Below, piece after piece: positions 2,133 to 26,728 of a stretch of 64,000 nucleotides of DNA. The stretch is from an uncultured delta proteobacterium (GTDB lineage: Bacteria; Desulfobacterota; Binatia; UBA9968). Both the position numbers and the translations under genes were made by a program. The notes below the pieces were generated by a model. It had not been told where the DNA came from, made no database searches, and worked only from the letters and a program-made list of their open reading frames with translations. How positions within the stretch are numbered: position 1 is the stretch's first letter; each line of letters starts with the position of its first letter. The stretch covers positions 192,001-256,000 of the forward strand of contig CAVTUQ010000009.1 in the NCBI GenBank assembly GCA_963737905.1. The letters are read 5' to 3'.

Positions 2133-3144
2133 CTAGCGCGAATCGGTGATATGGCTTTCTCTGGCTGGTTGTGAAACACCCGTGTTAGGCAATCTGGAGA
2201 CGGTTTCTGCCATGGGGAATAAGTTATTGAGACTCGGACGCGATGAGATATATCCCTGCTGCTCGGCATACTCGACGAATTTCTCAAGCACGTTCGCATT
2301 AGGGCTCAAGCCGTGGTTCCACGGGTTCTCGCCGAATCTTCTCTCCTGTTCTTCGCGCAAAAGCACCGCCGTAGGAAATGAAAATCGTTTCGGGTACTGA
2401 TATCGCTCCATGCATAACCTGTCAGCTTCATCGAACGCGGCGAGAAGCCGTCCGGCGAGCCACGGATGTTTATTCAAAAGCGATTCTTTTAAAACCAGGG
2501 TGTGCGTAATCGGAAAAATCTGCGTTCTATCGAAGTAGCGTTGTACCGAAGTTGGGCAATCCTGGAACAGTCTCCGTATCCGAGGATCGCCGGCCCGGTA
2601 TGCACGCGGCACATTTGCCGCAATCACCGCATCCAGCTCCCCGTCGAGAAGCAGTTGTTCCACATCTTTCTCTTGAACAGTTTTCTTTACGTTCTGAGGC
2701 GCCGCGTATCCGGCACCTTTCGGTCGATGAGGTAACCCAATGAACGTCGGAGGGAGAAACGCCGTGATGTTCTTGGAGGATTCCCCGCGCCCACAAGCCG
2801 ACGGTAAACCGGTATTGCTCCATCCCCACCTTTTTGCCTTTCAAGTCTTGAGGCGCGTCGATTCCGGAATTTGGCGAGCAGAAGATATACGGCTGTATGA
2901 ACATGCGGAGCGGAAAAACCGGTAGGGCCACCAAGGGTTCGCCGCGGCAGCGCGCCATGACATACCAAGACAAGGACATTTCTACGACGTCGAACATTTC
3001 ATACACGGGCCTATAGCACGCTGCTCCCTGGGTTGGCGGAGGAAATACTTTTAGGGAAACGCCGTCAACGCGCGCCTCGCCCGTGGCCAGCGCGTTGGTT
3101 CTGTCATAATCCGCAACCATCAAACTGAGCTCAAGATCACCCAT
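2133..3144 (-). CDS. 4,5-dihydroxyphthalate decarboxylase-like protein (Pht5 family, periplasmic-binding fold), frameshifted
   Basis: N-terminal LSLMVADYDRT...DGV, EMSLSWY, ALPVFPLR; C-terminal GELDAVI and IFPITH. ORFs 2527..3144 and 2133..2663 join via a frameshift near 2700. Confidence 0.75.
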
Positions 3145-5358: not shown

Positions 5359-6320
5359 CTATTTAAGTCCCAGCTCTCTCATTGCTTCCCGCACGGGACT
5401 CAGCTCGGCCACCGTAGTCGAGGAAACTTCGCCGGTTATTTTAAGATCATTTTTTGCTTGATCGATGACCACCCGAAGGCCATCCTCGGGGATAAAGCCA
5501 TTGGGGCTGAAGCCCTTCCACGTCGAATCAAAAGAGGCAGTGGCACTTGATCGATCGGTTTTGGCCCAGGCCGCTAAAATTTGAATGGCATCATCGCGAT
5601 GTTTGATCATGAATTGATTAGCCCTGATCAACGTCTTGATGACCTTCTTAACCTCCTCGGGTTTTTCCGCCAGTTTTTTTGTGTTAGTTCCCAATCCCAT
5701 GTATGGAAATCGCACAATCTCATTGGCTTTCGTCAGCACGGTGAAACCCATTTTTTTTCCTTCGGAATCGCTTGGCGGAGCAACCACCGCGCCGTCCACG
5801 ACACCCTGACTCATCGCAGCCAAACGTGCACCATCTGAGCCCAAGGCGATAAGTTTGATGTCCTGCTTTGGATCGAGGCCGAAGTGTTTGCTGATCAGCT
5901 GCGCGACGACGTCGGCGGAGCTGCCGAAGGAGCCGAATGCGATGGATCTCCCTTAAATTCCTTGAATGATTGAATACCCGGTCGCGCCAGAATCACATAA
6001 GTCGGGCTGTCGATGAATGTCGCCACGACTTTTACCGGCAACCCTCGCATTGCCGCTCTCACGACCGCACTAAAAACCATCGTGTAGTCGATGGAGCCGC
6101 TCGCCAGCGCCGAAATCGACACGCTTGCCGTAGTTTGAATGATTTCCGGGTCTAGGCCTTCGTCCCTGAAATATCCCTTTTTTGTTGCGACCCCGGCGCT
6201 CAGATAGGTTATGTTGTAGTTTGTTACGGCAATCCTAATTTTGTCGGCGGCTTCGACCGAGCTACCGCAAACGCAAACAAGCAAAAAAGCCGCCGATATT
6301 CTGTTGATGTGATTTCTCAT
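5359..6320 (-). CDS. ABC solute-binding protein, NMT1/SsuA-like, frameshifted
   Basis: ORF 5895..6320 (signal peptide, GYFRDEGLD) joins 5359..5844 via a frameshift near 5950. Confidence 0.8.
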
Positions 6321-7497: not shown

Positions 7498-8094
7498 ATG
7501 AAACGTCAAATTACTTTAGTCAGATTTGCTTTGACAGTCTTGTTTTCCGTTGTCCCGGTTTTAGACGCAGGCGCCAAGGATATCAATCTGGGTTGGTCCG
7601 GCCAGGGTAGTTGGTCCACTTTACCTTACATCGTCGCGGGTGAAAGAGGGTTCTTCGAGAGAGAAGGACTAAAGGTCCGGCTCATTACTTTTCGCGGTAC
7701 GAACCTCATGCTAACCGCGCTTCTCGCTGGAGAGCTGGATTACGCGACGATCCTGCCATTTCTCACCGGAGCGTCGGCGCGGGGATTGCCTGTGAAAATC
7801 CTCGGAGCGGTAACCAAGAGCAGCTCTTACGTTATCATCTCGCGGCCGGAGATCGAAAACATCAAAGGTCTGAGAGGCAAAAAAGTCGGTATCAATTCAT
7901 TCGGAAGCTCGGTGGACTATACGGCGTACACGGCTTTGAGTAGAAGCGGGTTGGATCCCAACAACGATGTTACGATTCTCATGTCGGGCGGCGGCAATGT
8001 CGACCGCATCGCTGCGGTCATGAGTGGATCCATCGATGCCACCGTTAAAACTAAGAATCTACGTCAAGATAGGGATCTGTCTCCGCCGGCTTAG
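7498..8094 (+). pseudogene. 3'-truncated NMT1-type solute-binding protein
   Basis: Signal peptide and GFFEREGL, AGELDY, LRGKKVGI motifs. Homology stops at SGSIDATV (about 185 aa versus about 320 aa in paralogs), and the convergent gene leaves no room for the rest. Confidence 0.65.
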
Positions 8095-13466: not shown

Positions 13467-14984
13467 TCATGCGGAGAGGGAGCCGCCGTGGATTTCCCGG
13501 TTTCGCATCCGAGCCAACACGCTGTGATATCTGCCGTAACCGAAATAAATGACAATGCCGACCAGCAACCACCCAATCAACCGAAACCAGTTTTCCGCCG
13601 GAAGAGAAAACATCAATAGCAGGCAGAAAGCTATGCCGAGAAGAGGCACGAGGGGCACCCATGGGCAGCGGAAAGGTCGCTTAATCTCCGGATGACGATA
13701 ACGCATGATGAGCACGGCGGTGCAGACGATGATGAATGCTAACAGGGTGCCGATATTCACCAGCTCTGCGAGCATTCTAAGCGGCAAGAGTGCCCCCATA
13801 AGCCCAACCGCTATTCCCGTCGAGATGGTGGATTTCCAGGGGGTGCGGAAGCGCGGGTGAACCGAACCAAAGAACCCGGGCGGCAGTAACCCGTCGCGTG
13901 CCATGGCCAGCATGATGCGCGGTTGGCTGAGCATGAGCACCATCAACACCGACGTAATCCCGGTCAGCGCGCCCAGCGAAATGACAAAATGCGCCCAAGG
14001 AAGCCCGACCCGACTAAACGCCTGAGAAAGGGGCGCATCGATTTCAATCTTATCGTAAGGAACCATGCCGGTCAGGACCGCCGCGACCGCGATGTACAAA
14101 ACCGTGCAGAGTGTGAGTGAGGCGATGATCCCGATGGGCACGTCACGACTCGGGTTGCGCGCCTCCTCGGCGTGGGTCGAGACCGAGTCGAAGCCGATGT
14201 AAGCGTAAAAGACGATTGCCGCTCCCGCTATGACACCGAGAGGCTCACCGCCCGGCCCATGTTGCCCCGCGATCGTATGGCCGAAGAAACTGATCCCGGA
14301 ATAACCATAGGGCGCAAAGGGCTGCCAGTTTTGCGGATCGATGTAGAAGACGCCCACCGCAACGATCAAAGCGATGACCGCTAGTTTGACCGCGACCATG
14401 ATCGTGTTGAAGCTCACGCTCTCACGAATCCCGATGATCAGGACGCCGGTAAGGAAGGCCGAGATCAGCAACGCCGGAAGATCGATAATCGCTCCGGTGG
14501 AAACAAATTTTCCGCTGGCGGGATTGAAGTCGAAGGGTGCATCCGTATAGGCGCGGGGCAGATGGATGTTTATGATAGCGAGGAAGTCCGAAAAGTAGTG
14601 AGACCAGCCGTGGGCCACGCTGGCTGCCCCGACACCATATTCGAGGAGCAAATCCCAGCCGATGATCCAGGCAAAGAGCTCGCCGAGAGTCGCATAGGCG
14701 TAAGTGTAAGCGGAACCGGCTACCGGCACCATGGAGGCGAATTCGGCGTAGCAGAGCGCGGCAAAGGTGCAAGCGAAGCCGGCGAGCACAAACGACAGCA
14801 TGGTCGCTGCCCCGGCTTTATCTTTGGCTACCAAACCGAGGATGATGAAAATACCGGCGCCGATAATCGCGCCGACGCCGAGACTGGTAAGCTGAAGGGG
14901 GCCGAGGACGGGCCGCAAACGGGTCTCGCCCATTTCCTTCAACAACAAGTGAGTCGGTTTTCTCGCGAAGATTGAGCCCGACAT
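13467..14984 (-). CDS. APC-family cationic amino acid permease
   Basis: GAIIGAGIF, CYAEFASMVPVAGSAY, YIGFD, EEARNP, MARDGLLP. Confidence 0.93.
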   Translation of the reverse strand: MSGSIFARKPTHLLLKEMGETRLRPVLGPLQLTSLGVGAIIGAGIFIILGLVAKDKAGAATMLSFVLAGFACTFAALCYAEFASMVPVAGSAYTYAYATLGELFAWIIGWDLLLEYGVGAASVAHGWSHYFSDFLAIINIHLPRAYTDAPFDFNPASGKFVSTGAIIDLPALLISAFLTGVLIIGIRESVSFNTIMVAVKLAVIALIVAVGVFYIDPQNWQPFAPYGYSGISFFGHTIAGQHGPGGEPLGVIAGAAIVFYAYIGFDSVSTHAEEARNPSRDVPIGIIASLTLCTVLYIAVAAVLTGMVPYDKIEIDAPLSQAFSRVGLPWAHFVISLGALTGITSVLMVLMLSQPRIMLAMARDGLLPPGFFGSVHPRFRTPWKSTISTGIAVGLMGALLPLRMLAELVNIGTLLAFIIVCTAVLIMRYRHPEIKRPFRCPWVPLVPLLGIAFCLLLMFSLPAENWFRLIGWLLVGIVIYFGYGRYHSVLARMRNREIHGGSLSA

Positions 14985-15035
14985 ACAATCTTACGATTGG
15001 AAGATCACCCGCAGGCGCACTTTACATGCGCAACC

Positions 15036-16169
15036 CTAGAAGCCGATGATTCTTAATTGGAGCAAGCCGGAGAGATCGTTGTGGGAGTTGCCGGATGAAA
15101 TGAAATCGGGTTGTTGGTTGTAATTAACATTGAAAGATAGTGTATCGTCTTTTCCCAGAAAGTTCCCGATTTTCCAGTCCAGGGCTGTGGTGGTCCCAAA
15201 CGTCCTCACAATATTCAATCCGTCACCGCCATAGCTTCGGGCGAATGACGTCGTGCCGGTGAGCTTCAACACATCGCGGAAGGGAGTGTAGGCAAAGATG
15301 AGCTCCGTCCTCGGAGTTTCGATTCTAGCTCCAGTATTTGCATTCCGCTCTTCTCTGATGCTGAGATTAGGGTTCACAGAAAGGAAATCGAATGGGCGAT
15401 AAGAACCTGTGAGAGTATTCGTAAAAGCCGTCGTTGCTTGGTTTAGCGCTGCCCCTGCATCTATCCATTCGTAACTCGACGCAAACTTTGCTCCCCATTG
15501 TGACCGATTGATGTTGAGCGACGCAGTGGCGTTCTTGGTCACGCGCAGGCTGTTTACATCCAGGAGTTTCTCCCAGGACTCGCCGATGGATCCACGAAGA
15601 CTGAAGGGGCCTAGATTGTGCTCTCCCCAAAGTTGGCCTTCATCGCGGGTTTGGTCGGTTGCAGCCCCTGCGATGGAGACAAAGCCACGATCTGTGGATT
15701 TGTAGTCGGCGCCGTAGCCTAAACTTCCCCAACGGCTCTTAAGTCCAAGCCGGAGCATTTTTGGCCAATCCTGACAAGCACACTGGCCCGCCAAAGAATT
15801 GAGGGAGCTGTAGGACAGCTCGCCTTCGCCAGTTAAGCCGCTGCCGGCAAAGGAAGAGGTCGCCAGTAGATTTAAGTATTTCCGGGAATTGCCATCCTGC
15901 AAACCGCCGTTCGGCTCGCTGGGCGCATCGCGCTTTTCGAGGTACGAAGCCTTCAGTTCCAGGAGTTTTGGGCCGAAGCTTAGGACAAGCGTTTTTCCGG
16001 CAGGAACAGCGGGTCTGGGCATCCCGTCAATCTGAGAGAAAGCTGTCGGATCAGGTGCCAAGATAGGAGATGACGCCGGCTCAGGGAAAATCTGAGAAAG
16101 CTCAGGCTTTGCAGTGGTGCAAGCAGAAGAAAGGAAAATTAAGGCGGCTAGAAGATAAAATTTGCGCAC
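15036..16169 (-). CDS. Hypothetical lipoprotein with outer-membrane beta-barrel-like C-terminal region
   Basis: Lipobox LSSA-C (Cys17), Pro-rich linker, many alternating amphipathic strands, and C-terminal LQLRIIGF ending in Phe. Confidence 0.65.
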   Translation of the reverse strand: MRKFYLLAALIFLSSACTTAKPELSQIFPEPASSPILAPDPTAFSQIDGMPRPAVPAGKTLVLSFGPKLLELKASYLEKRDAPSEPNGGLQDGNSRKYLNLLATSSFAGSGLTGEGELSYSSLNSLAGQCACQDWPKMLRLGLKSRWGSLGYGADYKSTDRGFVSIAGAATDQTRDEGQLWGEHNLGPFSLRGSIGESWEKLLDVNSLRVTKNATASLNINRSQWGAKFASSYEWIDAGAALNQATTAFTNTLTGSYRPFDFLSVNPNLSIREERNANTGARIETPRTELIFAYTPFRDVLKLTGTTSFARSYGGDGLNIVRTFGTTTALDWKIGNFLGKDDTLSFNVNYNQQPDFISSGNSHNDLSGLLQLRIIGF

Positions 16170-16250
16170 GGTAAAAACCTGTAAGATGATATTTTAGTCC
16201 ATCTTCGATTTTTACTAAAGAGGAGCCAAGCGGGGCGGCCGCAAGTCCGT

Positions 16251-17282
16251 CTAGAGGGAAAGCCTCTCCCAATCCGCGTTGGATGCATCGCGTGCAATCG
16301 AAAGCCCCCCATCGGACCCGGCAAAAATGGGATCCTTGACGACGGTCACTCGACCCCCTCCCAGGTCCGAGCAGGCTTTTTCGAGAGCAGTCGGGAGACC
16401 GGAAATGAGCGAGCTTCCGCCCGCTACAATAATATTGTTGCGCACCTGCTCCTGGTACTCGGGCTCCACCCTGGAGAGAAGATCGATCATGGTCTCCGAG
16501 ATGGGGGCCAGAATAGATTCACAGGCGGCGCGCATTTCATCTGTGATATCGAATTCTGTCGCCTTTCCCTTGGCTGGCACCGTGACCGTCACTCGACCCT
16601 TCGGATCACCGACGAAACTCCATTTTTCTTTCCAGTCACGGATCATATGAACCGAAACCTGGGCCTCAGGATGGTGCTCCTGCATCAGTTTTAAGAGGCG
16701 TTCGTCAATGGAATCACCGGCGTTTGGCAGCGTGCGCTGATCTTCCTCGGTAGGATAGCGGCCTTGCATGACACAAAAATCCGCCGTCCCGGCGCCAATA
16801 TCGATGATCATCGCGTGGAGCAATGCTTCCAAGCCGTAGGCCACCGCGAAAGGTTCAGACACCAACATCACGCTATCGGCAATGCCGTCCATGGCGCTCC
16901 GGAGTCTTTGTCTGCTGACTCGAAACGCCTCGGCCGGAACGCCGACAACCGCGCGTACCTTGCCTCGGTTCTTGCTTTTTTGCTTGAGGCCTATCAAGGA
17001 AATCAAATGGCGCAGTAATTCCTGGACCGCCTCCTCGTCCTTCGCCGATCCTTCTTTGATGACTCCGCGTTCGAGCGGCCGGCGGAGATCCAGCATCGAA
17101 CGATTGTCTAGGGCTTCGCGACCGACGAGGACGGTTTTCTTCACTAGTTTGCGGGCTACCATATCCAGGGGCCAGCCCACATAGCTGTCAACCACGTGAC
17201 GTTCGCCATTTGAAGCGGAGATGGAGCTTCGAGAGGTACCCAGATCTATTCCGATGCAGAGAGTTTCGTTGGTTTCTTCCAT
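16251..17282 (-). CDS. MamK-like actin-fold ATPase
   Basis: Actin motifs IDLGTS, VPA, SEPFAVAYG, DIGAGT, AGGSS. The segments PTEEDQRTLPNAGD, KEKWSFVG, PEYQEQVRNNIIVAGG and VKDPIFAG match MamK as I recall it, rather than MreB. Confidence 0.85.
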   Translation of the reverse strand: MEETNETLCIGIDLGTSRSSISASNGERHVVDSYVGWPLDMVARKLVKKTVLVGREALDNRSMLDLRRPLERGVIKEGSAKDEEAVQELLRHLISLIGLKQKSKNRGKVRAVVGVPAEAFRVSRQRLRSAMDGIADSVMLVSEPFAVAYGLEALLHAMIIDIGAGTADFCVMQGRYPTEEDQRTLPNAGDSIDERLLKLMQEHHPEAQVSVHMIRDWKEKWSFVGDPKGRVTVTVPAKGKATEFDITDEMRAACESILAPISETMIDLLSRVEPEYQEQVRNNIIVAGGSSLISGLPTALEKACSDLGGGRVTVVKDPIFAGSDGGLSIARDASNADWERLSL

Positions 17283-18284
17283 AAATCAGCTACCTTTTTT
17301 TCCGAACCATTGAGGTTCTTCGCATAAGAAACAATGCCTCTCAGCAGCGCCTGCGCGATCTTTTCCCGATAATCGGCGTTTGTCAACAATTTAACGTCAT
17401 CTTCGTTCGACAGACAGGAAACCTCGGCCAAGACGGCGGGCATCTGAGTGCCGACGAGGACCGCGAAGGGGGCCATCTTCACGCCGCGATTTTCCAGTTC
17501 GGGGTTGATTTGGCTGAGTGACTGATAGAGTTCGGTGTTGATGGTCTTGGCAAGCGTATAGGATTCATCGCGCCGGGTGTCGAGGTAGATCTTTTCCAGC
17601 AGCCGCCGATAGTCAGCCAAAGAGTAACCGGAATCCCGGTTTTCAATGCCGGCGAGCTTGATCACGGCCGGATCGTTAGAGGCTCCGACATAGTACGTTT
17701 CCAGTGGCCGGATTTCACGGGGTTCCATCCAGTTTACATGGATCGAAACAAAAAGATCGGCGTTGTTGGCGTTGGCGAAAGCCACTCTTTTTTCCAGCGG
17801 TAAGGTTTCATCGGTGTGTCGCGTCATCAGCACTTCGAAAGGGACATCTTCCATGAGTCCGCGCAATCGGAGTGCGATGTCCAACGTGATGTCCTTCTCC
17901 GACACTCCTGATTCCGAGATAGCGCCATGTTGTTTACCGCCATGTCCCGGGTCGATTACGATTCTCTTGACCGAGAGAGGAAGGACCGACCGGTTTATTC
18001 GGGAAGGGGCCGGAAGAGGCGTCGCCGCTTTGAGCAGATGGCTCCCGGCCGCTATGTCCGTGGCGGCCGGGTTGGATGACGAATTCTTTGCCCCTCGAAA
18101 CCACCAGCGCCGGTACCGCCAGATAAACGATACTTGCGATCAGCAAAAACCCCCACAGCCAGACAGGAAATATGGCTTTGGGCTGCTCCTGGGGTTTGGT
18201 TGCGCTAACAACCCGCGTCCCTCCAACATTGCTCTGGATTGCCTCACGAAGGATGCGAAGTTTAGTCTGTTCTACGCTTTCCAT
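17246..18284 (-). CDS. Membrane-anchored N-acetylmuramoyl-L-alanine amidase (Amidase_3), frameshifted
   Basis: ATG 18284 leads to a cytoplasmic segment and one TM helix (WLWGFLLIASIVYLAVPALVV). After a frameshift near 18095 come a linker and RIVIDPGHGG, SEKDITL, FVSIHVN and LAEVSCLSN (Zn ligands and catalytic Glu). Confidence 0.88.
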
Positions 18285-19099
18285 TAGTATTGCCTTATCT
18301 CTTAGTTCGGCAAGATACCGCACGATCAAAAGAGCCAACTGGTTGCTATGTCTATCTTGCCGTAGGGCACGGAATACTCCGGATTTGTGAGACTCTTATG
18401 AGCAAAGGCAGGCGGCCGCTACGATTATCGAAGTTCCTATCTCTCGCAATTCTCTTTGTACCCTGACAACTAGGGCGGTTGTACGGCTGTTAGTTACCAG
18501 TGGATTGGGGCCGACGAACGGGTTGTAATAAATCGATGTTTGAGTCGGCACATACGGGCCTCCTCTACTCAAAATTGATCTGTAAGTCTAATCGAAAGTG
18601 GCGATTTACGCAATGAAAACTACCGATGGAACTGATGGAGCAGGCTCGATCTCTCGGTCTGATCACAGGAAAATCGTGTATAATAAAGACCCTCGTTTTG
18701 GTGTTAGATATACAGAGTTGTCTTTCTCTTCTCATCGTAGGAATCATCTACTGGCATTTGAGGCAACAAATTTCAGTTGCTCCGAGGGCGGCACTCCTCG
18801 CGGTCGTTTTTCCTTGAGCTTGATTCCTTATCTCGCGATTGTTCGTCAGCAAGGGATTCCCAATTTTCAATCTAATGGAGCTCAAGCCTGAGTGGACACG
18901 AGTTTATGAGGATCCTATGAGGAGCTCTTTGTTCGACGAGGTTCGCCGTTGGAAGAGGAGATCCGGCTTACAAAGCACCGGAGGTGTCGTACATGGGTGC
19001 AGGGTCATGCTTTCCGTGACCTGTCGGCGGGTCTCTTGGCCAGGTCCTTCCTTCCGTTCCAAATTTCGCCTATAAGTTGGGTTGAGAAAGGAGATTTCT

Positions 19100-19918
19100 A
19101 TGGCTACACAGCGCATCAGTTACGTTGACCCGGCGACGATTACCGATCCGGCAATGCTCGAAGAGCTCGATCGATGTCGCCGCGAGGGGACACCGCGCCC
19201 GGAAAGTTCCGCAATCCGTGCCCACGTGCCCGCTTGTTTTTGGTCGTTCGCGAATTCTTGGCGTGATATTTTCAAGAACGGCATTTGCGATCATAGCATC
19301 AAAGAACTCTGCCGCGTTTATGTTTCAAGATCGATCAACTGCGAGTACTGCGGCAACCAACGTTCGCTCAAAGCGGCCAAGGCGGGCCTCGAAGAGGCGC
19401 AGTACGACGACCTGTTGAACTTTGAGCAATCGAAGCGCTTTGACGAACGGCAAAAAGCCGCGCTGGCATACGCCGAAGCCATTACCTGGCATCTGGATAC
19501 CGATGACGCGTTCTGGCAGCGACTATATCAACATTTTTCCGAGCCGGAGCTGGTTGAGATCGGCTGTTTTGTCGCATTGACCATGGGCCAGCAGAGCTGG
19601 CTGCGCCTGCTAAACATCGAGCACCATCAAGTGCTGGCAGGGACCTCGGGAGGAATGGCGCCGGGATTCGAAACTTTCGAGGCTCTGGACAAATCGAAGG
19701 CATCCGCCGATTACTGGGCGAAAAAGGCATCCCTCGTTAACTGCGAAGAGTTAGAACGCCGAATTAAACGCATGGATATATCTCTCGTTGAGGTCTTTCA
19801 GAACCAAGAGTTGACCTCAGTATGCTCTTACACTAAAGTAAAGTCCGGCCTTTTTCTCCGTCCATGTCGATCCACGTCGCGCTGCACCACGTCACCCAAT
19901 ACTATTACGATCGCCTGA
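19100..19918 (+). CDS. Carboxymuconolactone decarboxylase/AhpD-like protein
   Basis: IKELCRVYVSRSINCEYC and ERQKAALAYAEAIT; RBS AAAGGAG. The real stop is probably near 19740 (frameshift in an A-run), because the raw tail overlaps the next gene. Confidence 0.8.
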   Translation: MATQRISYVDPATITDPAMLEELDRCRREGTPRPESSAIRAHVPACFWSFANSWRDIFKNGICDHSIKELCRVYVSRSINCEYCGNQRSLKAAKAGLEEAQYDDLLNFEQSKRFDERQKAALAYAEAITWHLDTDDAFWQRLYQHFSEPELVEIGCFVALTMGQQSWLRLLNIEHHQVLAGTSGGMAPGFETFEALDKSKASADYWAKKASLVNCEELERRIKRMDISLVEVFQNQELTSVCSYTKVKSGLFLRPCRSTSRCTTSPNTITIA

Positions 19919-22900
19919 TTAACCTCGGCCCCCAGGTGGTCCGTCTGCGACCCGCGCCGCATTGTCGCACGCGGATTTTGAGCTATTCACTGCGGGTTGA
20001 GCCGGCCAAACACTTTATCAACTGGCAACAAGATCCCCAGGCGAATTATCTCGCTCGCCTGGTATTTCCCGAATCCACCCGCAAATTTCACGTCGAAGTC
20101 GATCTCGTCGCCGAGATGGCGGTCATCAACCCGTTCGATTTTTTCTTGGAACCCCACGCCGAGTATTATCCCTTCGAGTACGAGCCTTGGCAGCGGGTGG
20201 AGCTCGCGCCGTACTTCAGGCAGGAGCCGTTGACGCCGCTCTTCGATTGTTACTTGGCCGCGGTTTCGCGTGAGAAGATGCGCAGCGTCCCGTTTCTAGT
20301 CGAGCTCAACCGCCAGCTCGCCGGCGACATCGAATACCTGATCCGCATGGAGCCCGGCGTGCAGACGCCGGAAGAGACACTCACCAAACGGTCGGGCTCT
20401 TGCCGCGACTCGGGCTGGCTGCTCGTCCAACTGCTGCGCCGTCTTGGGCTCGCTGCGCGATTTGTCTCAGGCTATCTGATCCAACTCACCGCTGACGTCA
20501 AATCCCTTGACGGCCCGTCGGGGCCGGAAAAGGATTTCACTGATTTGCACGCCTGGGCCGAGGTGTATCTGCCGGGAGCCGGCTGGATCGGTCTTGACCC
20601 GACCTCCGGGTTATTCGCGGGCGAAGGTCATCTCCCGCTCTCCTGCACGCCTGAGCCGGCATCCGCCGCTCCGGTGACCGGCGCCATCGACGAGTGCGAG
20701 GTGGAGTTCTCTCACGAAATGACGGTCACGCGCATCTGGGAAGCGCCGCGGGTCACCAAGCCCTACACCGAAGAAGAGTGGCGGGCCATTGAGGAGCTGG
20801 GTCACGATGTCGATGCCGACCTTGCGGCTCGCGACGTGCGCCTGACCATGGGCGGGGAGCCGACGTTTGTTTCCATCGACGACCCCGACGGCGAAGAATG
20901 GAACACCGCGGCGCTGGGAACTGGCAAGCGCAGACTCGGTGCTGATCTCTATCAGCGTTTGCGCAAGCGCTACGGTGCGCAGGGCCTCGTCCATTTTGGC
21001 CAAGGCAAGTGGTATCCGGGCGAGCAACTGCCACGCTGGTCGCTCAACTGCTTTTGGCGTGCCGATGGCGAACCCATCTGGCGCGCCGAATCGCTGATCG
21101 CGGACGAGTCCCGGCCGGGCGACGCGACGGAAGCTACTGCGGCGGAGTTTCTGCGCGGCGTCGCCGAAAGGTTGGGACTCGACGCGCAGCACATATTCCC
21201 GGCCTATGAGGATGCTTATTATTTTCTATGGCGCGAGCGGCGATTGCCGGCCAACGTCGATCCTTTCGATTCCCGGCTCGACGATCCACTCGAACGCGAG
21301 CGCTTGGTGCGCGTATTCTCTCAAGGTCTCAAGCAGGTCGTCGGCTATGCCCTCCCGGTAACGCGGGACCCGGCGAGCGGACGCTGGCGCAGCGGATCTT
21401 GGTTTCTACGTAGCGAGCACTGTTATTTGGTCCCCGGCGACTCGCCTATGGGTTATCGTTTGCCGCTCGACTCTCTGCCGTGGGCTAAAGCCAGCGACTA
21501 TCCATACGTCTACCCGCCGGACCCCACGGTGCCGCTTCCGCCCCTTGTGAGCCATGCCGAATTCCGATTTCAGGTCGCCGCAAGGCGGTCCGCCGATCAG
21601 GCAACTTCAAGCGAGAGCCGTGCCGAGAGCGCCGGCTCGAAGCGGGACGGCTCCTTCGACCTGGCGCCGAGCCTCTTCGAGAGCGCGTCGTGGATCAACC
21701 GTTCGGCCATATGCGCGGAGCCAAGAAACGGAATTCTCTATGTTTTTATGCCGCCGATGGAATCGCTGGAGGATTACCTGGGACTCGTCGCCGCGATGGA
21801 AGCCACGGCGGAGGAGATGCGCCAACCCATTCTCTTTGAAGGCTACGAACCGCCGCGCGACCCGCGGCTAATTAATTTCCGGATCACTCCGGACCCCGGC
21901 GTGATCGAAGTGAACATTCATCCGTCGCGGCGCTGGGACGAGTTGGTGGAGCATACGACTTTCCTGTACGAGGCCGCGCGGGAGTCGCGGTTGGCAACCG
22001 AGAAATTTATGATCGACGGCCGCCACACCGGCACCGGTGGCGGCAATCACTTTGCGCTCGGCGGCGCGACGCCCAACGACTCGCCCTGGCTGCGCCGTCC
22101 GGATCTCTTGCGGAGCCTGGTGAGCTACTGGCACAACCACCCTTCGCTCTCGTATATGTTTTCCGGGCTATTCATCGGCCCCACTTCGCAAGCCCCGCGT
22201 ATCGACGAGGCACGCAACGACTCGGTGAACGAAATCGAAGTCGCGTTCCGCGAGATGAAGCGCCAGACGCAGTCGGACACTGACCCCTGTCCACCTTGGC
22301 TCCTCGATCGACTGATGCGCCATCTGCTTATCGACGTCACCGGTAATACGCACCGTTCCGAGTTTTGCGTCGATAAGCTTTATTCGCCGGACAGTGCCAC
22401 CGGCCGCCTCGGGCTCCTTGAAATGCGTGCTTTCGAGATGCCGCCCCACGCGCGCATGAGCCTGACCCAGCAACTGCTGCTGCGCACTCTCGTCGCGCGT
22501 TTCTGGCGAGCGCCTTATGCGCCGGCGCGGCTGGCGCGCTGGGGCACCGAACTGCACGATCGCTTCCTACTGCCGCACTTTGTCTGGCTTGACTTCAATG
22601 ACGTGATCACTGAATTGAACGAGGCCGGCTACCGGTTCGAGGCGCGGTGGTTTACGCCACACTTCGAGTTTCGTTTTCCGAAATACGGCGACCTCTCGAC
22701 TCGCGGCATCGATCTCGAGTTGCGCGGCGCCCTGGAGCCCTGGCACGTGCTGGGCGAGGAAGGCGCCGTCGGCGGCACGGCGCGTTATGTCGACTCGTCC
22801 CTCGAGCGGCTACAACTTAAGGTGACCGGGCTGCCGCCGGATCGCTACACGATCACTTGCAATAGGGTACCGCTACCCTTACAGACTACGGGAAGCGTGG

Positions 22901-23214
22901 GGGAGTTTGTGGCGGGAGTGCGCTACCGCGCGTGGCAGCCGTCATCCGCTCTTCACCCGACCATCGCTGTGCACGCGCCGCTCACGTTTGACATTGTGGA
23001 CCGTTGGATGCACCGGAGCCTCGGCGGCTGCCAGTATCACGTTATGCACCCCGGTGGGCGCAGCTATGCGACGTTTCCGGTGAACGCCTTCGAGGCCGAA
23101 AGCCGCCGCTTGGCGCGCTTCTTCCGCATCGGCCACACGCCGGGGCAGATGGAGGTCGGCGAGCCCCGCATCGATCCCGAGTTTCCGTTTACCCTCGATC
23201 TGCGCAAGATCTAG
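19864..23214 (+). CDS. Transglutaminase-like domain fused to DUF2126 (putative amidoligase)
   Basis: Triad motifs GSCRDSGW, DLHAWAEVY, LDPTSG; then MGGEPTF, TPDPGVIEVN, GTGGGNH, GPTSQAPR.DE and GNTHRSEFC. Confidence 0.92.
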   Translation: MSIHVALHHVTQYYYDRLINLGPQVVRLRPAPHCRTRILSYSLRVEPAKHFINWQQDPQANYLARLVFPESTRKFHVEVDLVAEMAVINPFDFFLEPHAEYYPFEYEPWQRVELAPYFRQEPLTPLFDCYLAAVSREKMRSVPFLVELNRQLAGDIEYLIRMEPGVQTPEETLTKRSGSCRDSGWLLVQLLRRLGLAARFVSGYLIQLTADVKSLDGPSGPEKDFTDLHAWAEVYLPGAGWIGLDPTSGLFAGEGHLPLSCTPEPASAAPVTGAIDECEVEFSHEMTVTRIWEAPRVTKPYTEEEWRAIEELGHDVDADLAARDVRLTMGGEPTFVSIDDPDGEEWNTAALGTGKRRLGADLYQRLRKRYGAQGLVHFGQGKWYPGEQLPRWSLNCFWRADGEPIWRAESLIADESRPGDATEATAAEFLRGVAERLGLDAQHIFPAYEDAYYFLWRERRLPANVDPFDSRLDDPLERERLVRVFSQGLKQVVGYALPVTRDPASGRWRSGSWFLRSEHCYLVPGDSPMGYRLPLDSLPWAKASDYPYVYPPDPTVPLPPLVSHAEFRFQVAARRSADQATSSESRAESAGSKRDGSFDLAPSLFESASWINRSAICAEPRNGILYVFMPPMESLEDYLGLVAAMEATAEEMRQPILFEGYEPPRDPRLINFRITPDPGVIEVNIHPSRRWDELVEHTTFLYEAARESRLATEKFMIDGRHTGTGGGNHFALGGATPNDSPWLRRPDLLRSLVSYWHNHPSLSYMFSGLFIGPTSQAPRIDEARNDSVNEIEVAFREMKRQTQSDTDPCPPWLLDRLMRHLLIDVTGNTHRSEFCVDKLYSPDSATGRLGLLEMRAFEMPPHARMSLTQQLLLRTLVARFWRAPYAPARLARWGTELHDRFLLPHFVWLDFNDVITELNEAGYRFEARWFTPHFEFRFPKYGDLSTRGIDLELRGALEPWHVLGEEGAVGGTARYVDSSLERLQLKVTGLPPDRYTITCNRVPLPLQTTGSVGEFVAGVRYRAWQPSSALHPTIAVHAPLTFDIVDRWMHRSLGGCQYHVMHPGGRSYATFPVNAFEAESRRLARFFRIGHTPGQMEVGEPRIDPEFPFTLDLRKI

Positions 23215-23290
23215 GCGAAAGCACTATGAGCCAGCAATCACAGTGAACCGAGGAGTTAGCGTCGTTGAACGTTGAATAACCTTGAATTTT

Positions 23291-25825
23291 ATGCCACTGT
23301 CATCCTTCGCGAGTTACCTACCCCAGCCGGAACGTTACGACGAAGTCTTCGGCATGGATGGTCGCCCGCGCCCTCACTGGAAGCGGCTCGCGGAGGCGGC
23401 GGCGCGGGCAAGCCGCGCCGAGTTATCGCGTCGGGCAGGGACCATCCGTCACGCTGTGGATCAGGATGGTGTAACGTACAACATCTATGCCGATCCGAAG
23501 GGGGCCGACCGGCCTTGGGAAGTCGATCTGCTGCCATTGATCATCAGCACCGAGGAGTGGCGCTTTTTGGCGAAGGCGGTACAGCAGCGCGCTCGCCTCC
23601 TGAACGCCGTCCTTGCCGATCTCTATGGAGCGGGCCGCTTGCTTGCCGAAGGTTTGCTTCCACCTGCCATCATCCAAGGTCACCACAATTATCTCTGGCC
23701 TTGCCGCGGGCTGGAGCCACCCGGCGGTACTTTTCTCAATCTTTACGGTTGCGATCTGGCCCGCTCTCCCGACGGCCGCTGGTGGGTCATCGCCGACCGC
23801 ACGCAGGGTCCCTCCGGCGCGGGATACGCGGTGCAAAACCGGCTCATCGTTACGCCTATGTATGGACGGCTGTTCCGATCGCTCGGCGTGCAGCGGCTCG
23901 CCGGTTTTTTCCGCACCTTGCAACAGCGGTTGGCGGCTCTCGCCCCCACCGACGGCGAGGCGCCGCTCATCGCGCTCCTGACACCCGGGCCGTACAACGA
24001 AACATACTTCGAGCAGGTCTTCCTTGCTCGCTATCTGGGCTTTGCCCTCGTGGAAGGGTCGGACCTCACCATACGTGATAATAGAGTCTATTTGAAAACC
24101 CTCGAAGGTCTAAAGCGGGTGCACGTTCTGCTCCGCCGTCTCGACGACGAATACTGCGATCCATTGGCTCTGCGTACCGACTCTGCGCTCGGGGTGCCAG
24201 GGTTGCTTGGTGCCGTGCGTGCCGGAAATGTGGCCATCGCCAATGCTCTTGGCTCGGGGGTGCTGGAGACGCCCGCCTTGCCGGGTTTTCTCCCGGCAAT
24301 TTGCCAAACGCTGCTCGGCGAGCCCCTTGAGCTACCTTCCATTGCGACCTGGTGGTGTGGGGAAGCGCCGGCGCTCGAGCATGCGATCAAGCATCTCCCC
24401 GAGCTGGTCATCAAGCCGGCCTTTCCCTCCATGAAGCTTGAACCGACTTTTGGACATGTACTCGACGGCGCTGGCCGGGAAGCGATGGTTGAGAGAATAC
24501 GCGCGACGCCGCACGCCTTTGTGGCCCAGGAGTGGGTGCGCCTTTCCCAGGCGCCTACTTGGTCCAGCGAGCGCGAGCGATTCGAGCCGCGGGTGGTCGG
24601 ATTGCGGCTCTACGCGGTAGCCACCGCCACCGGCTACGACGTCATGCCCGGTGGACTCGCACGGGTCTCGCCCGAGACCAGCACCGAGGTTATCAGTATG
24701 CAGCGTGGCGGATCGAGCAAAGACACTTGGGTGCTGGACGGTGCCGCGACGGTGTATCAATCGCTACTGCAGCCCCGTCTCACCGCCCGAGACATCGTAC
24801 ACAGCGGTTTTTACTCTCCTTCGCGCGCGGTGGAGAATCTTTTCTGGATGGGACGTTACGCCGAGCGCGTCGAATCGGTTGGCCGTCTGCTGCGCGCCAC
24901 GGCTCTGCGGCTGGTCGAAAGCGACCCGTCAAACTCGGCAGGTGTCGAGGTGCTGACCGCTTTGTGCGAAAGCGCGCGGCTTGGCGAAATGTCGCCCGCG
25001 GCCACGACGCCATCTTCGACGAGGAAAAAAGCAAAAAAAACAGTAAACGGCGGCGACGATTGGTTGCTGGCGGCCGTCGGGGATCCGCGAGTCGCAAACG
25101 GTGTTCCGGCTAACACGGCGCGCCTGCTCTACTGCGCGACCCAACTTCGGGATCGAATTTCGCTCGACAACTGGCATACCGTTCAACGTCTTGCTCATGC
25201 GCACGAGCCCGCGCCAAAGGATATCGAAGCCGCCTTGACGATTATCGATCAAGTATTGCCTGCCTGCACCGCCCTTGCGGGCTACGCATTCGATGATATG
25301 ACGCGAGACGATGCCTGGCGATTCCTGGCGACGGGACGCCGCTTGGAGCGTATGGCCTTCCTGGCATCGGTGGTCGCCCAGGTCTTGGCGCGGCCGGAGG
25401 AGGAACGCGAGGCGGCGCTCGGCGCGCTCCTCGAAATAGGTAACATCATCATCACCTATCGCGCGCGCTACCAGCGGCAGCCTGAACTCCTTCCGGTCGT
25501 CGATCTTCTGGTCAAAGACGAGTCGAATCCTCACGCGGTCTGCTTCCAGCTCGCGCTGCTCAGCCGGGAAGTTCACGAGTTCGAAGCTCGACTGGGTTTC
25601 CGCCCGATCAACAATCCACTTCCATTGCTCCACTCCCTTCGGCTGTTCGACTTGGCCGAGTTCGATAACCATCGTCTGTCCCATGGCGAGCCGGAGCGAT
25701 TCGGCGAGTCCCTCGCCACGATGCTCAGGGCGTGCGAGCGCCTTGCCCACGGGCTTTCCGACGAGTTGTCGCAGCGTTTCTTCGTGCACGCGGGAGAGCG
25801 ACCACAAGCGAGTGTGGCGGCATGA
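23291..25825 (+). CDS. Circularly permuted ATP-grasp type 2 protein fused to an alpha-E (DUF403) domain
   Basis: DRTQGPSGAGY, LTPGPYNETYFE, NALGSGVLE, MPGGLAR, GGSSKDTWV; alpha-E LFWMGRYAERVE and GRRLER. Confidence 0.92.
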   Translation: MPLSSFASYLPQPERYDEVFGMDGRPRPHWKRLAEAAARASRAELSRRAGTIRHAVDQDGVTYNIYADPKGADRPWEVDLLPLIISTEEWRFLAKAVQQRARLLNAVLADLYGAGRLLAEGLLPPAIIQGHHNYLWPCRGLEPPGGTFLNLYGCDLARSPDGRWWVIADRTQGPSGAGYAVQNRLIVTPMYGRLFRSLGVQRLAGFFRTLQQRLAALAPTDGEAPLIALLTPGPYNETYFEQVFLARYLGFALVEGSDLTIRDNRVYLKTLEGLKRVHVLLRRLDDEYCDPLALRTDSALGVPGLLGAVRAGNVAIANALGSGVLETPALPGFLPAICQTLLGEPLELPSIATWWCGEAPALEHAIKHLPELVIKPAFPSMKLEPTFGHVLDGAGREAMVERIRATPHAFVAQEWVRLSQAPTWSSERERFEPRVVGLRLYAVATATGYDVMPGGLARVSPETSTEVISMQRGGSSKDTWVLDGAATVYQSLLQPRLTARDIVHSGFYSPSRAVENLFWMGRYAERVESVGRLLRATALRLVESDPSNSAGVEVLTALCESARLGEMSPAATTPSSTRKKAKKTVNGGDDWLLAAVGDPRVANGVPANTARLLYCATQLRDRISLDNWHTVQRLAHAHEPAPKDIEAALTIIDQVLPACTALAGYAFDDMTRDDAWRFLATGRRLERMAFLASVVAQVLARPEEEREAALGALLEIGNIIITYRARYQRQPELLPVVDLLVKDESNPHAVCFQLALLSREVHEFEARLGFRPINNPLPLLHSLRLFDLAEFDNHRLSHGEPERFGESLATMLRACERLAHGLSDELSQRFFVHAGERPQASVAA

Positions 25826-26728
25826 GCGCGAGCAGTGTGCGTTGTTACCGGGTCGATGCATCGGACCACCTATCGGTATTCAGAGCCGGTGACCCTTTCT
25901 CATCAGCAGCTCCACCTGACCCCGCGCCTGCTCGCTTACCAGCGCACCCGTGTGCACGAGGTGGCCATCACGCCGCCGCCGACCTATCGCCGGGAGCGCA
26001 CAGACGCTTTCGGCAATCCGGTGACCGACATGGCCATTGAGGCGCCCCATACCACGCTTGAGATTGTTGGCCGTTCGGTCATCGAAGTTGGCGGACGAGA
26101 ACCTCCCGAGGCCGATAAAACAGTGGCCTGGGAAACCGTCCGCGAAGCGCTTGCTTATCGCGCCGGCTGGCGCCCGGACCCTGAGGCGCTCGAAGCCACA
26201 CGGTTTCTCTTCGAATCGCCCCATGCGCGCGTAAAAAGGGACCTACGAGCCTACGCGAGCGATTGCTTCAGGCCTGGACGTTCGGTGCTGGAGGCGGCCC
26301 AGGGGCTCATGGACAAAATCCATGGTGAGTTCAAGTTTGATCCTGAGGCAACGACCACCACAACCCCGGTCATGACGTTCTTCGAGCAAAAGCGCGGCGT
26401 GTGTCAGGACTTCACCCACTTTATGATTTCTTGCTTGCGTTCCACCGGGCTCCCCGCTCGTTACCTGAGCGGCTATCTCGTGCCGCGATCAACGTCGGGT
26501 AAACAACGGCCGGTGGGGGCGGAGGCCTCCCATGCGTGGGTGGCCGTGTTCGTTCCCGGCAGCGGCTGGGTCGAGCTCGATCCGACCAATAACGTGCTGC
26601 CGTCCTTGGGGCATATTACGTTGGGATGGGGCCGCGATTTCTCCGATGTGACGCCGTTACGCGGTGTCATCAATGGCGGCGGAGAGCAGAGGCTTACGGT
26701 AAAAGTGACCATCGAGTTGGATGAGTAA
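25822..26728 (+). CDS. Transglutaminase-like protein
   Basis: GVCQDFTH, ARYLSGYL, SHAWVAV, LDPTN, GRDFSDVTP. ATG 25822 overlaps the previous stop (ATGA); frameshift near 25855. Confidence 0.9.

Follow-up and report, generated by a model that had tools for sequence, protein, structure and literature searches.

The window analysed here is a 64,000-nucleotide stretch of the genome of an uncultured delta proteobacterium of the Binatia, a soil bacterium, positions 192001-256000 of contig 9 in a 6.7-Mb assembly of 46 contigs (87.5% completeness, 6.7% contamination). On its minus strand lies a gene for an actin-like protein that resembles MamK, and directly upstream of it lies a gene for a peptidoglycan amidase. 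This actin-amidase unit recurs in related bacteria and in distant phyla. As assembled, the amidase gene is split into two frames, A and B. The features of the locus, in window coordinates, are:

16251..17282, minus strand: gene for a MamK/BeeR-superfamily actin-like ATPase, an open reading frame (ORF) of 343 amino acids with an ATG start (from the ORF, hidden Markov model (HMM) scores and a structural model).
17246..18139, minus strand: amidase frame B, a periplasmic linker and a complete Amidase_3 catalytic domain of the AmiA/B/C type (from Pfam, homologs and the PDB).
17936-17964, minus strand: zinc-site motif IVIDPGHGG (from the sequence).
18085..18284, minus strand: amidase frame A, with the likely true start (ATG at 18284), the tail and the transmembrane helix (from the N-terminal alignment of relatives).
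18165-18284, minus strand: predicted cytoplasmic tail of 40 residues with the motif TK.RL.REA.Q.N (from the relatives' alignment).
18099-18164, minus strand: transmembrane helix (from frame A).
18084: extra base splitting the amidase into two frames (from public contigs and the continuous ORF of relatives).
17295..17301, minus strand: run of seven A residues (A7) at the 3' end of the amidase gene (from the junction sequences of 8 loci).
15036..16169, minus strand: predicted lipoprotein of 377 residues, possibly a beta-barrel (the downstream neighbour).

The translated actin contains SEPFAVAYGL, PTEEDQRTLPNAG, KEKWSFVG, PEYQEQVRNNIIVAGG, VKDPIFAG, DIGAGT, and a C-terminal WERLSL. The aligned counterparts in solved MamK (5ljw/5jyg) are SEPFMVGYGL, PGPEDQVTLTKAG, KEQFSFVG, PEYQ(A/D)TVLQNIVFAGG, VKDPTFDG, and WRQL. 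The alignment with MamK (5ljw/5jyg/5ljv) spans 336 residues (6-341) with one short indel, and the segments shared along it are, on sequence grounds, far beyond chance. A first-pass annotation of this DNA had pointed to these segments, DIGAGT among them, and had read the protein as MamK-type rather than MreB-type. The ORF and all of the listed motifs are present, and the reading itself is borne out by the HMM scores, by the match to MamK in the PDB, and by the best fold, which is that of the MamK filament.

In NCBIfam, the MamK model NF040964 gives the window protein 373.8 bits (E 6.7e-112; 374.1 bits in the whole-genome scan). This is below the curated cut-off of 400, and it is the best score of any actin family, well above MreB, ParM, FtsA, and others. 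The MreB models, whose cut-offs are 293 and 365.75, give 73.5 (PRK13927) and 62.2 bits (TIGR00904), so the comparison that the first-pass annotation had proposed comes out with MreB as the lower score. The FtsA model gives 18.9 bits, and the BeeR model NF053558 gives 216.7 bits against a cut-off of 530. Sequences in the PDB rank in the same way: MamK at 250 bits (E 2e-73), BeeR 8r2n at 146 (1.5e-41), and MreB at 53 (~1e-13). Identity is 38-45% to 13 cluster-linked MamKs (those with magnetosome-type neighbours at their locus), 32-33% to BeeR, and 27% to the MreB of the same genome.

An AlphaFold2 model built on 38 homologs reaches a predicted local distance difference test (pLDDT) score of 89.6. 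Of the structures compared, it lies closest to the MamK filament protomer 5ljv_A, with template modelling (TM) scores of 0.90/0.95 and a root-mean-square deviation of 1.8 A; BeeR follows at 0.85/0.83, and MreB structures give 0.76-0.82. The ATPase motifs D13-L-G-T-S, E143, D161-I-G-A-G-T, and G288-G289 are intact, and D13, G15, E143, D161, G163, G165, T166, G288, and G289 are invariant across the 38 homologs. The likeness to MamK (5ljv, 5ljw, 5jyg; NF040964) thus includes a collinear alignment, the same nucleotide-binding motifs, and E143 and D161 at identical numbering; E143A and D161A are reported as ATPase mutants of MamK. The column of MamK A278, which according to the title of 5ljw is mutated in the non-polymerising crystal form, holds Glu in the window protein and E, A, S, R, N, M, or D across the 13 cluster-linked MamKs. 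In the model, the first strand starts at residue 8, with only 7 residues before it.

A different identity, that of an MreB/Mbl rod-shape protein, is what public annotation of the homologs says. Pfam reports only MreB_Mbl, at 85 bits; since Pfam has no MamK model, Pfam alone names the window actin MreB_Mbl, and for the same reason the close public homologs, which come from Candidatus Binatia or 'Deltaproteobacteria' metagenome-assembled genomes (MAGs), are named 'rod shape-determining protein MreB'. However, the MreB model scores lie far under their cut-offs, the protein is only distantly related to its own-genome MreB, and the real mreBCD operon is on contig 37, where the canonical mreB scores 543.5 bits against a cut-off of 365.75 and is followed by mreC and mreD. 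The MreB/Mbl identity was rejected; it is refuted by the HMM scores and keeps hardly any probability.

The amidase is the constant neighbour of this actin and the most telling feature of the locus, one that the first-pass annotation had missed. At 13 of the 14 actin loci from 13 related genomes, the gene adjoining the actin on its upstream side, in the same orientation, encodes an Amidase_3 protein of 333-430 amino acids. (Two unpublished genomes, G006 and G012, supply 2 of the 14 carriers described below and one tree row, as well as 2 each of the 13 syntenic loci and of the 13 sequences behind the amidase HMM.) The exception is L027:2343-3374 (plus strand), a second actin copy in genome G004 that is 77% identical to that of the window. 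An HMM of the 13 amidases matches at 4 of 79 MamK-family loci from named genomes, each time immediately upstream of the actin. One of these four loci is from a Nitrospirae MAG, one from a Schekmanbacteria MAG, and two are from Gemmatimonadota MAGs. Their actins score higher against the window protein than those of all the other loci (335-346 bits vs at most 310) and fall with it in one clade, supported by a Shimodaira-Hasegawa approximate likelihood ratio test (SH-aLRT) value of 97. The outer flanking genes vary between loci (UbiD, ArgJ, ThiI, MFS, SPOR-secretin). At the junctions of 8 loci, the amidase stop lies 2-10 nucleotides before the actin ATG and follows a purine-rich, GGAAAGG-type stretch; this arrangement suggests that translation of the two genes is coupled.

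The 377-residue ORF downstream of the window actin has no Pfam or NCBIfam match, and among the 14 loci it has a homolog only at L023, from the same genus. Given the lack of a family and the genus-only conservation, it is not counted in the module.

Two of the loci have neighbours of their own. The L027 actin is flanked by genes for a transporter of the major facilitator superfamily (MFS) and for a 1374-residue ORF with a weak Pfam hit. At L020:8296-11061 (minus strand) in G021, the gene upstream of the amidase-actin pair encodes a GspD-type secretin whose C-terminal domain is of the peptidoglycan-binding SPOR type, a single case.

In the relatives, the amidase is one continuous ORF with a predicted layout of a cytoplasmic N-terminal helix, a basic stretch, one transmembrane helix, a variable linker, and the catalytic domain. 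Among 15 tails from three phyla, N19 is found in all 15 and K8 in at least 90%. The motifs that hold the zinc ligands and the catalytic Glu (DPGHGG, EK, SIHxN, and LxE) are kept in 13 of 13 relatives, which argues for retained amidase activity. In the window copy, frame B matches the whole Pfam Amidase_3 profile (1-172) at 135 bits with no stops, and the intact homolog at L023 scores 171 bits. Among solved amidases, only AmiB 3ne8, AmiA 8c2o, and AmiC 4bin align across the regulatory insert (residues 215-260); sporulation- and phage-type amidases (CwlV/CwlD/LytH-type chains) match the first half only. Because only the AmiA/B/C structures span the insert, the partner is read as an amidase of the regulated, cell-separation type. 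It gives no AMIN hit and has no signal peptide, but carries the cytoplasmic tail and one transmembrane helix instead. Its scores on the NCBIfam AmiA/AmiC/AmiB models are 92-109 bits, far under the cut-offs of 400-700, and a separate AMIN-type, AmiC-like amidase is encoded on contig 7.

The split of the window amidase is probably an assembly error. Frame B has no in-frame start before a GTG at 17905. In the contigs of 4 of 4 public soil-metagenome runs, one base is lacking exactly at 18084. At the 3' end, a same-genus relative has A8 where the window has A7; with A8, the amidase ends in ...KKGS-stop, 2 nucleotides before the actin ATG, and with A7, the window frame runs 37 nucleotides into the actin gene. 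Small indel errors are the simplest reading because the base at 18084, the A7 run, and other split-looking ORFs of the window all fit it, although a strain-private mutation may be the source.

Public metagenomes contain hundreds of proteins at 80-90% identity to the window actin, and thus it is under strong purifying selection. In the same family, 14 of 24 other genomes have a copy (75-93% identity), one of them two; the actin was not found in the other 10 of the 24 (71-100% complete) or in any of 16 genomes of two sister families. Beyond these, of 150 further genomes sampled evenly across the phylum, 8 have a MamK-family match at E<=1e-60, the best at 52% identity and the rest at 39-43%, and none of the window's close type (at least 75% identity). 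When proteins are clustered at 50% identity, 184 cluster representatives have matches at E<=1e-30, the closest being a protein from an Acidobacteriota MAG (65% identical) and a cluster with a member named 'MamK family actin-like protein [Nitrospira sp.]' (50%); the names among homologs of this Nitrospira-type protein are those of MAGs only, with no cultured carrier.

Phylogeny places the window actin apart from the MamKs of magnetosome clusters. Two quick IQ-TREE runs (LG+C20, 74 and 59 rows, SH-aLRT support only) were rooted with the genome's own MreB, a long branch. The cluster-linked MamKs form at least two separate supported clades, one proteobacterial-type (SH-aLRT 99) and one Desulfobacterota/Nitrospirota-type (100), and both are interleaved with clades of Planctomycetota and others that lack magnetosome-type neighbours. 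The window actin belongs to another clade (the one with SH-aLRT 97), whose 19 rows comprise its own Binatia/Acidobacteriota group, one group of Nitrospira type, another from Schekmanbacteria and Gemmatimonadota, and the long branch of BeeR. By an approximately unbiased (AU) test, a single clade of amidase-type actins that excludes BeeR is not rejected (p-AU 0.7), and the tree constrained in this way has a log-likelihood 9.4 units above that of the free quick search. Since that monophyly passes the test, BeeR is probably a sister lineage of the amidase-type actins, as far as sequences can tell; it is the nearest described family to the window subfamily. Only two residues, W37 and R281, combine conservation of at least 95% among the amidase-type actins with rarity in cluster-linked MamKs, too few for mapping a binding site. 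Together, the scores, the model, and the homologs indicate that the window protein is a member of a new subfamily of MamK/BeeR actins, distinct and strongly conserved, and one of many non-magnetosome clades in a broad superfamily whose deep branching is weakly supported. The first-pass annotation had gone further and proposed that, if confirmed, the protein could serve as an outgroup when the origin of the magnetosome cytoskeleton is traced. The outgroup role fits only loosely, since this is one clade among many, with the cluster-linked MamKs spread over at least two clades mixed with non-magnetosome ones.

Other members of the superfamily came up in the same searches. Planctomycetota, among them Brocadiaceae/Kuenenia, Phycisphaerae, and Gemmataceae, often carry MamK-family genes that lack neighbours of the magnetosome type (loci L029-L107). 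A separate clade (P0137-P0167; SH-aLRT 99, 14 rows) consists of proteins of 520-1232 residues with a C-terminal MamK-like domain that scores 374-421 bits on the MamK model; their N-terminal extensions of ~190-900 residues have no Pfam match in the six members scanned. One protein, P0001 (455 residues), looks like a partial internal duplication.

Could the gene nevertheless be a genuine magnetosome mamK, and its host a cryptic magnetotactic bacterium? MamK is its best-scoring family and its best structural match. However, the score of 373.8 is below the cut-off of 400, the protein lies outside both cluster-linked clades, and there is no magnetosome gene within 15 kb. When all ORFs of four magnetosome loci (Magnetospirillum sp. 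UT-4, a Magnetococcales MAG, Desulfamplus, and Ca. Magnetominusculus) were used as queries against the whole genome, only the MamKs matched the window actin, at 40-44% identity. The remaining matches are generic paralogs at scattered positions: an HtrA-like protease (contigs 27 and 9) and a putatively LemA-like ORF (contig 27). The other ORFs gave no clustered matches and none near the actin at E<=1e-5, and MamB/M-, MamA-, MamI-, and MamL-like genes were not found in this 87%-complete genome; with an incomplete assembly, these genes are 'not found' rather than 'absent'. Nor is there a MamJ-like adaptor gene near the actin. Given the score below 400, the position outside the cluster-linked clades, and the lack of a detectable magnetosome cluster, the window actin is not a magnetosome MamK, and a magnetosomal role is near refuted, with a vanishingly small probability. 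The identity of 38-45% to cluster-linked MamKs and the peptidoglycan amidase as partner set the two systems further apart. The same result upholds the first-pass warning that mamK alone is a poor marker of magnetotaxis, a warning further backed by the many MamK-family genes of Planctomycetota, Gemmatimonadota, Nitrospirota, and other groups without magnetosome neighbours. Public homologs carry the wrong 'MreB' label or, above the cut-off, 'MamK family'; neither cell shape nor magnetotaxis should be deduced from the actin gene alone.

What, then, would a MamK-like actin do with an amidase? We infer a mechanism in which the actin, like MamK and BeeR, would form ATP-dependent polymers, here beneath the inner membrane, and the filament would bind the cytoplasmic tail of the amidase, with the tail helix as its handle. 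Binding would then fix where the periplasmic amidase cuts peptidoglycan, or would switch it on. This would be a minimal, two-protein control of wall hydrolysis from inside to outside, operating alongside the ordinary MreB and AMIN-AmiC systems of the cell. Of the parts of this proposal, a functional link between actin and amidase is likely. We lean, on the evidence of sequence and gene order, toward an ATP-dependent filament that binds the tail and so positions the amidase or turns it on; taken by itself, direct contact between actin and tail falls just short of an even chance.

Several observations weigh against this mechanism. No amidase gene is present at any of 80 BeeR loci, though BeeR sits in the same clade, so an actin of this kind can work without one; likewise, the L027 paralog of G004 has no amidase. 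Because the module was not found in 10 of the 24 other genomes of the family (71-100% complete), it is taken to be dispensable. The tail helix could lie on the membrane surface instead of contacting a filament. The window copy of the amidase is frameshift-split as assembled, although public contigs do not have the extra base. In addition, the genome is 87% complete and 6.7% contaminated, and thus the absence of magnetosome genes is not strictly proven.

The first two of these observations would also be expected if actin and amidase are merely co-regulated, for example in division or in a differentiation step, and never touch; the filament would then have other cargo or a scaffolding task, and the tail would serve membrane insertion or another partner. 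However, the pair is the only conserved element of loci whose flanks vary, this pair has persisted in four phyla or more, its genes 2-10 nucleotides apart or overlapping, and the tail motif is conserved across phyla where the linker is not. Co-regulation without contact is therefore unlikely.

Alternatively, the amidase might be mainly an anchor, a structural rivet rather than a targeted hydrolase, whose tail tethers the filament to the membrane and whose periplasmic domain holds peptidoglycan. The amidase is indeed the only membrane protein always encoded with the actin, and a membrane-binding element of the MreB type is not evident in the actin, although no search was aimed at one. Against this stands the conservation of the zinc and catalytic Glu motifs in every one of the 13 relatives, which makes a purely structural role improbable. 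A filament that acts on an active amidase through its tail is still the preferred reading.

Control of an amidase from the cytoplasm has precedent. In E. coli, FtsEX-EnvC-AmiA/B and FtsA-FtsN control septal amidases. There, as proposed here, a cytoplasmic ATPase or actin-like protein governs, across the membrane, a periplasmic AmiA/B/C-type amidase with an autoinhibitory insert. The window system would differ in that the amidase spans the membrane itself and would contact the actin directly, so that two proteins would be enough; moreover, no LytM activator is encoded beside it. The proposed handle also has parallels, since in MreB-RodZ and ParM-ParR, too, a bacterial actin binds a partner protein through one of its short helices, that of the partner. 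In the window system, for which such binding is a proposal, the partner is a hydrolase, unlike a synthase scaffold or a DNA-binding adaptor.

BeeR (8r2n; NF053558) is another non-magnetosome member of the MamK superfamily in this clade. It is described as a three-stranded tubular actin of Verrucomicrobiota that polymerises with ATP, with no assigned function, and with a disordered N-terminal extension of 30-50 residues as its hallmark (PMC11929497). The window actin has no such extension. That MamK relatives occur in non-magnetotactic bacteria was already published for BeeR (PMC11929497), and it is implicit in NCBI naming, which applies 'MamK family actin-like protein' to MAG proteins. In a full-text literature search that covered few subscription journals, no paper was found on an actin-amidase pairing or on MamK relatives of Binatia.

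In place of the amidase, BeeR loci have a conserved upstream ORF of their own. An ORF of ~150-210 residues is directly upstream of the actin, on the same strand, at 55 of the 80 metagenome loci (L108-L187; e.g., L109:5394-5861, plus strand); of the remaining loci, many are truncated. Its product belongs to no Pfam family and consists of an N-terminal helix (L.RL.R.ICLLREQG), a Pro/Ala-rich linker, and a C-terminal helix (P.IADLLDAMLA.E), with both helices conserved. The main text of PMC11929497 does not mention this ORF, which encodes a candidate adaptor for the BeeR tube. A broader scenario is only tentative: the filament would grip the tail and decide where the wall is cut, or whether it is cut at all, the device would be shared by at least four phyla of mostly uncultured bacteria, and BeeR would be an offshoot of this partner-binding lineage of actins in which a small soluble adaptor took the place of the amidase.

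The rest of the window adds context. Within 15 kb of the actin gene lie genes for permeases, an MFS transporter, hydrolases, and a DUF2126/ATP-grasp/transglutaminase cluster. This last cluster, at 19864-26728 on the plus strand, has a higher G+C content (0.62 vs ~0.54). It is a recurrent gene set with three products: an amidoligase-like DUF2126 protein that has a transglutaminase N-domain, an ATP-grasp/Alpha-E protein with circular permutation, and a transglutaminase-like protein. NMT1/THI5-like substrate-binding genes at 2133-3144, 5359-6320, and 7498-8094 appear as adjacent fragments that cover complementary parts of the Pfam profile and are probably frameshifted or mis-assembled copies. A promoter/terminator scan of 14900-18800 gave counts at chance level (3 vs 2.5 and 8 vs 4.6). 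Two RNA runs contained just 5-6% of the sequence words sampled.

Bacterial actins have known jobs in wall synthesis (MreB), DNA segregation (ParM), and the formation of organelle chains (MamK); to our knowledge, none is dedicated to a wall hydrolase. If the proposal is true, the conserved actin-amidase unit would represent a new job for the bacterial cytoskeleton and would provide a simple model for the control of a periplasmic enzyme across the membrane. For the MamK/BeeR superfamily, in which the published BeeR structure has no assigned function, the pairing is a functional lead that reaches beyond magnetotaxis.

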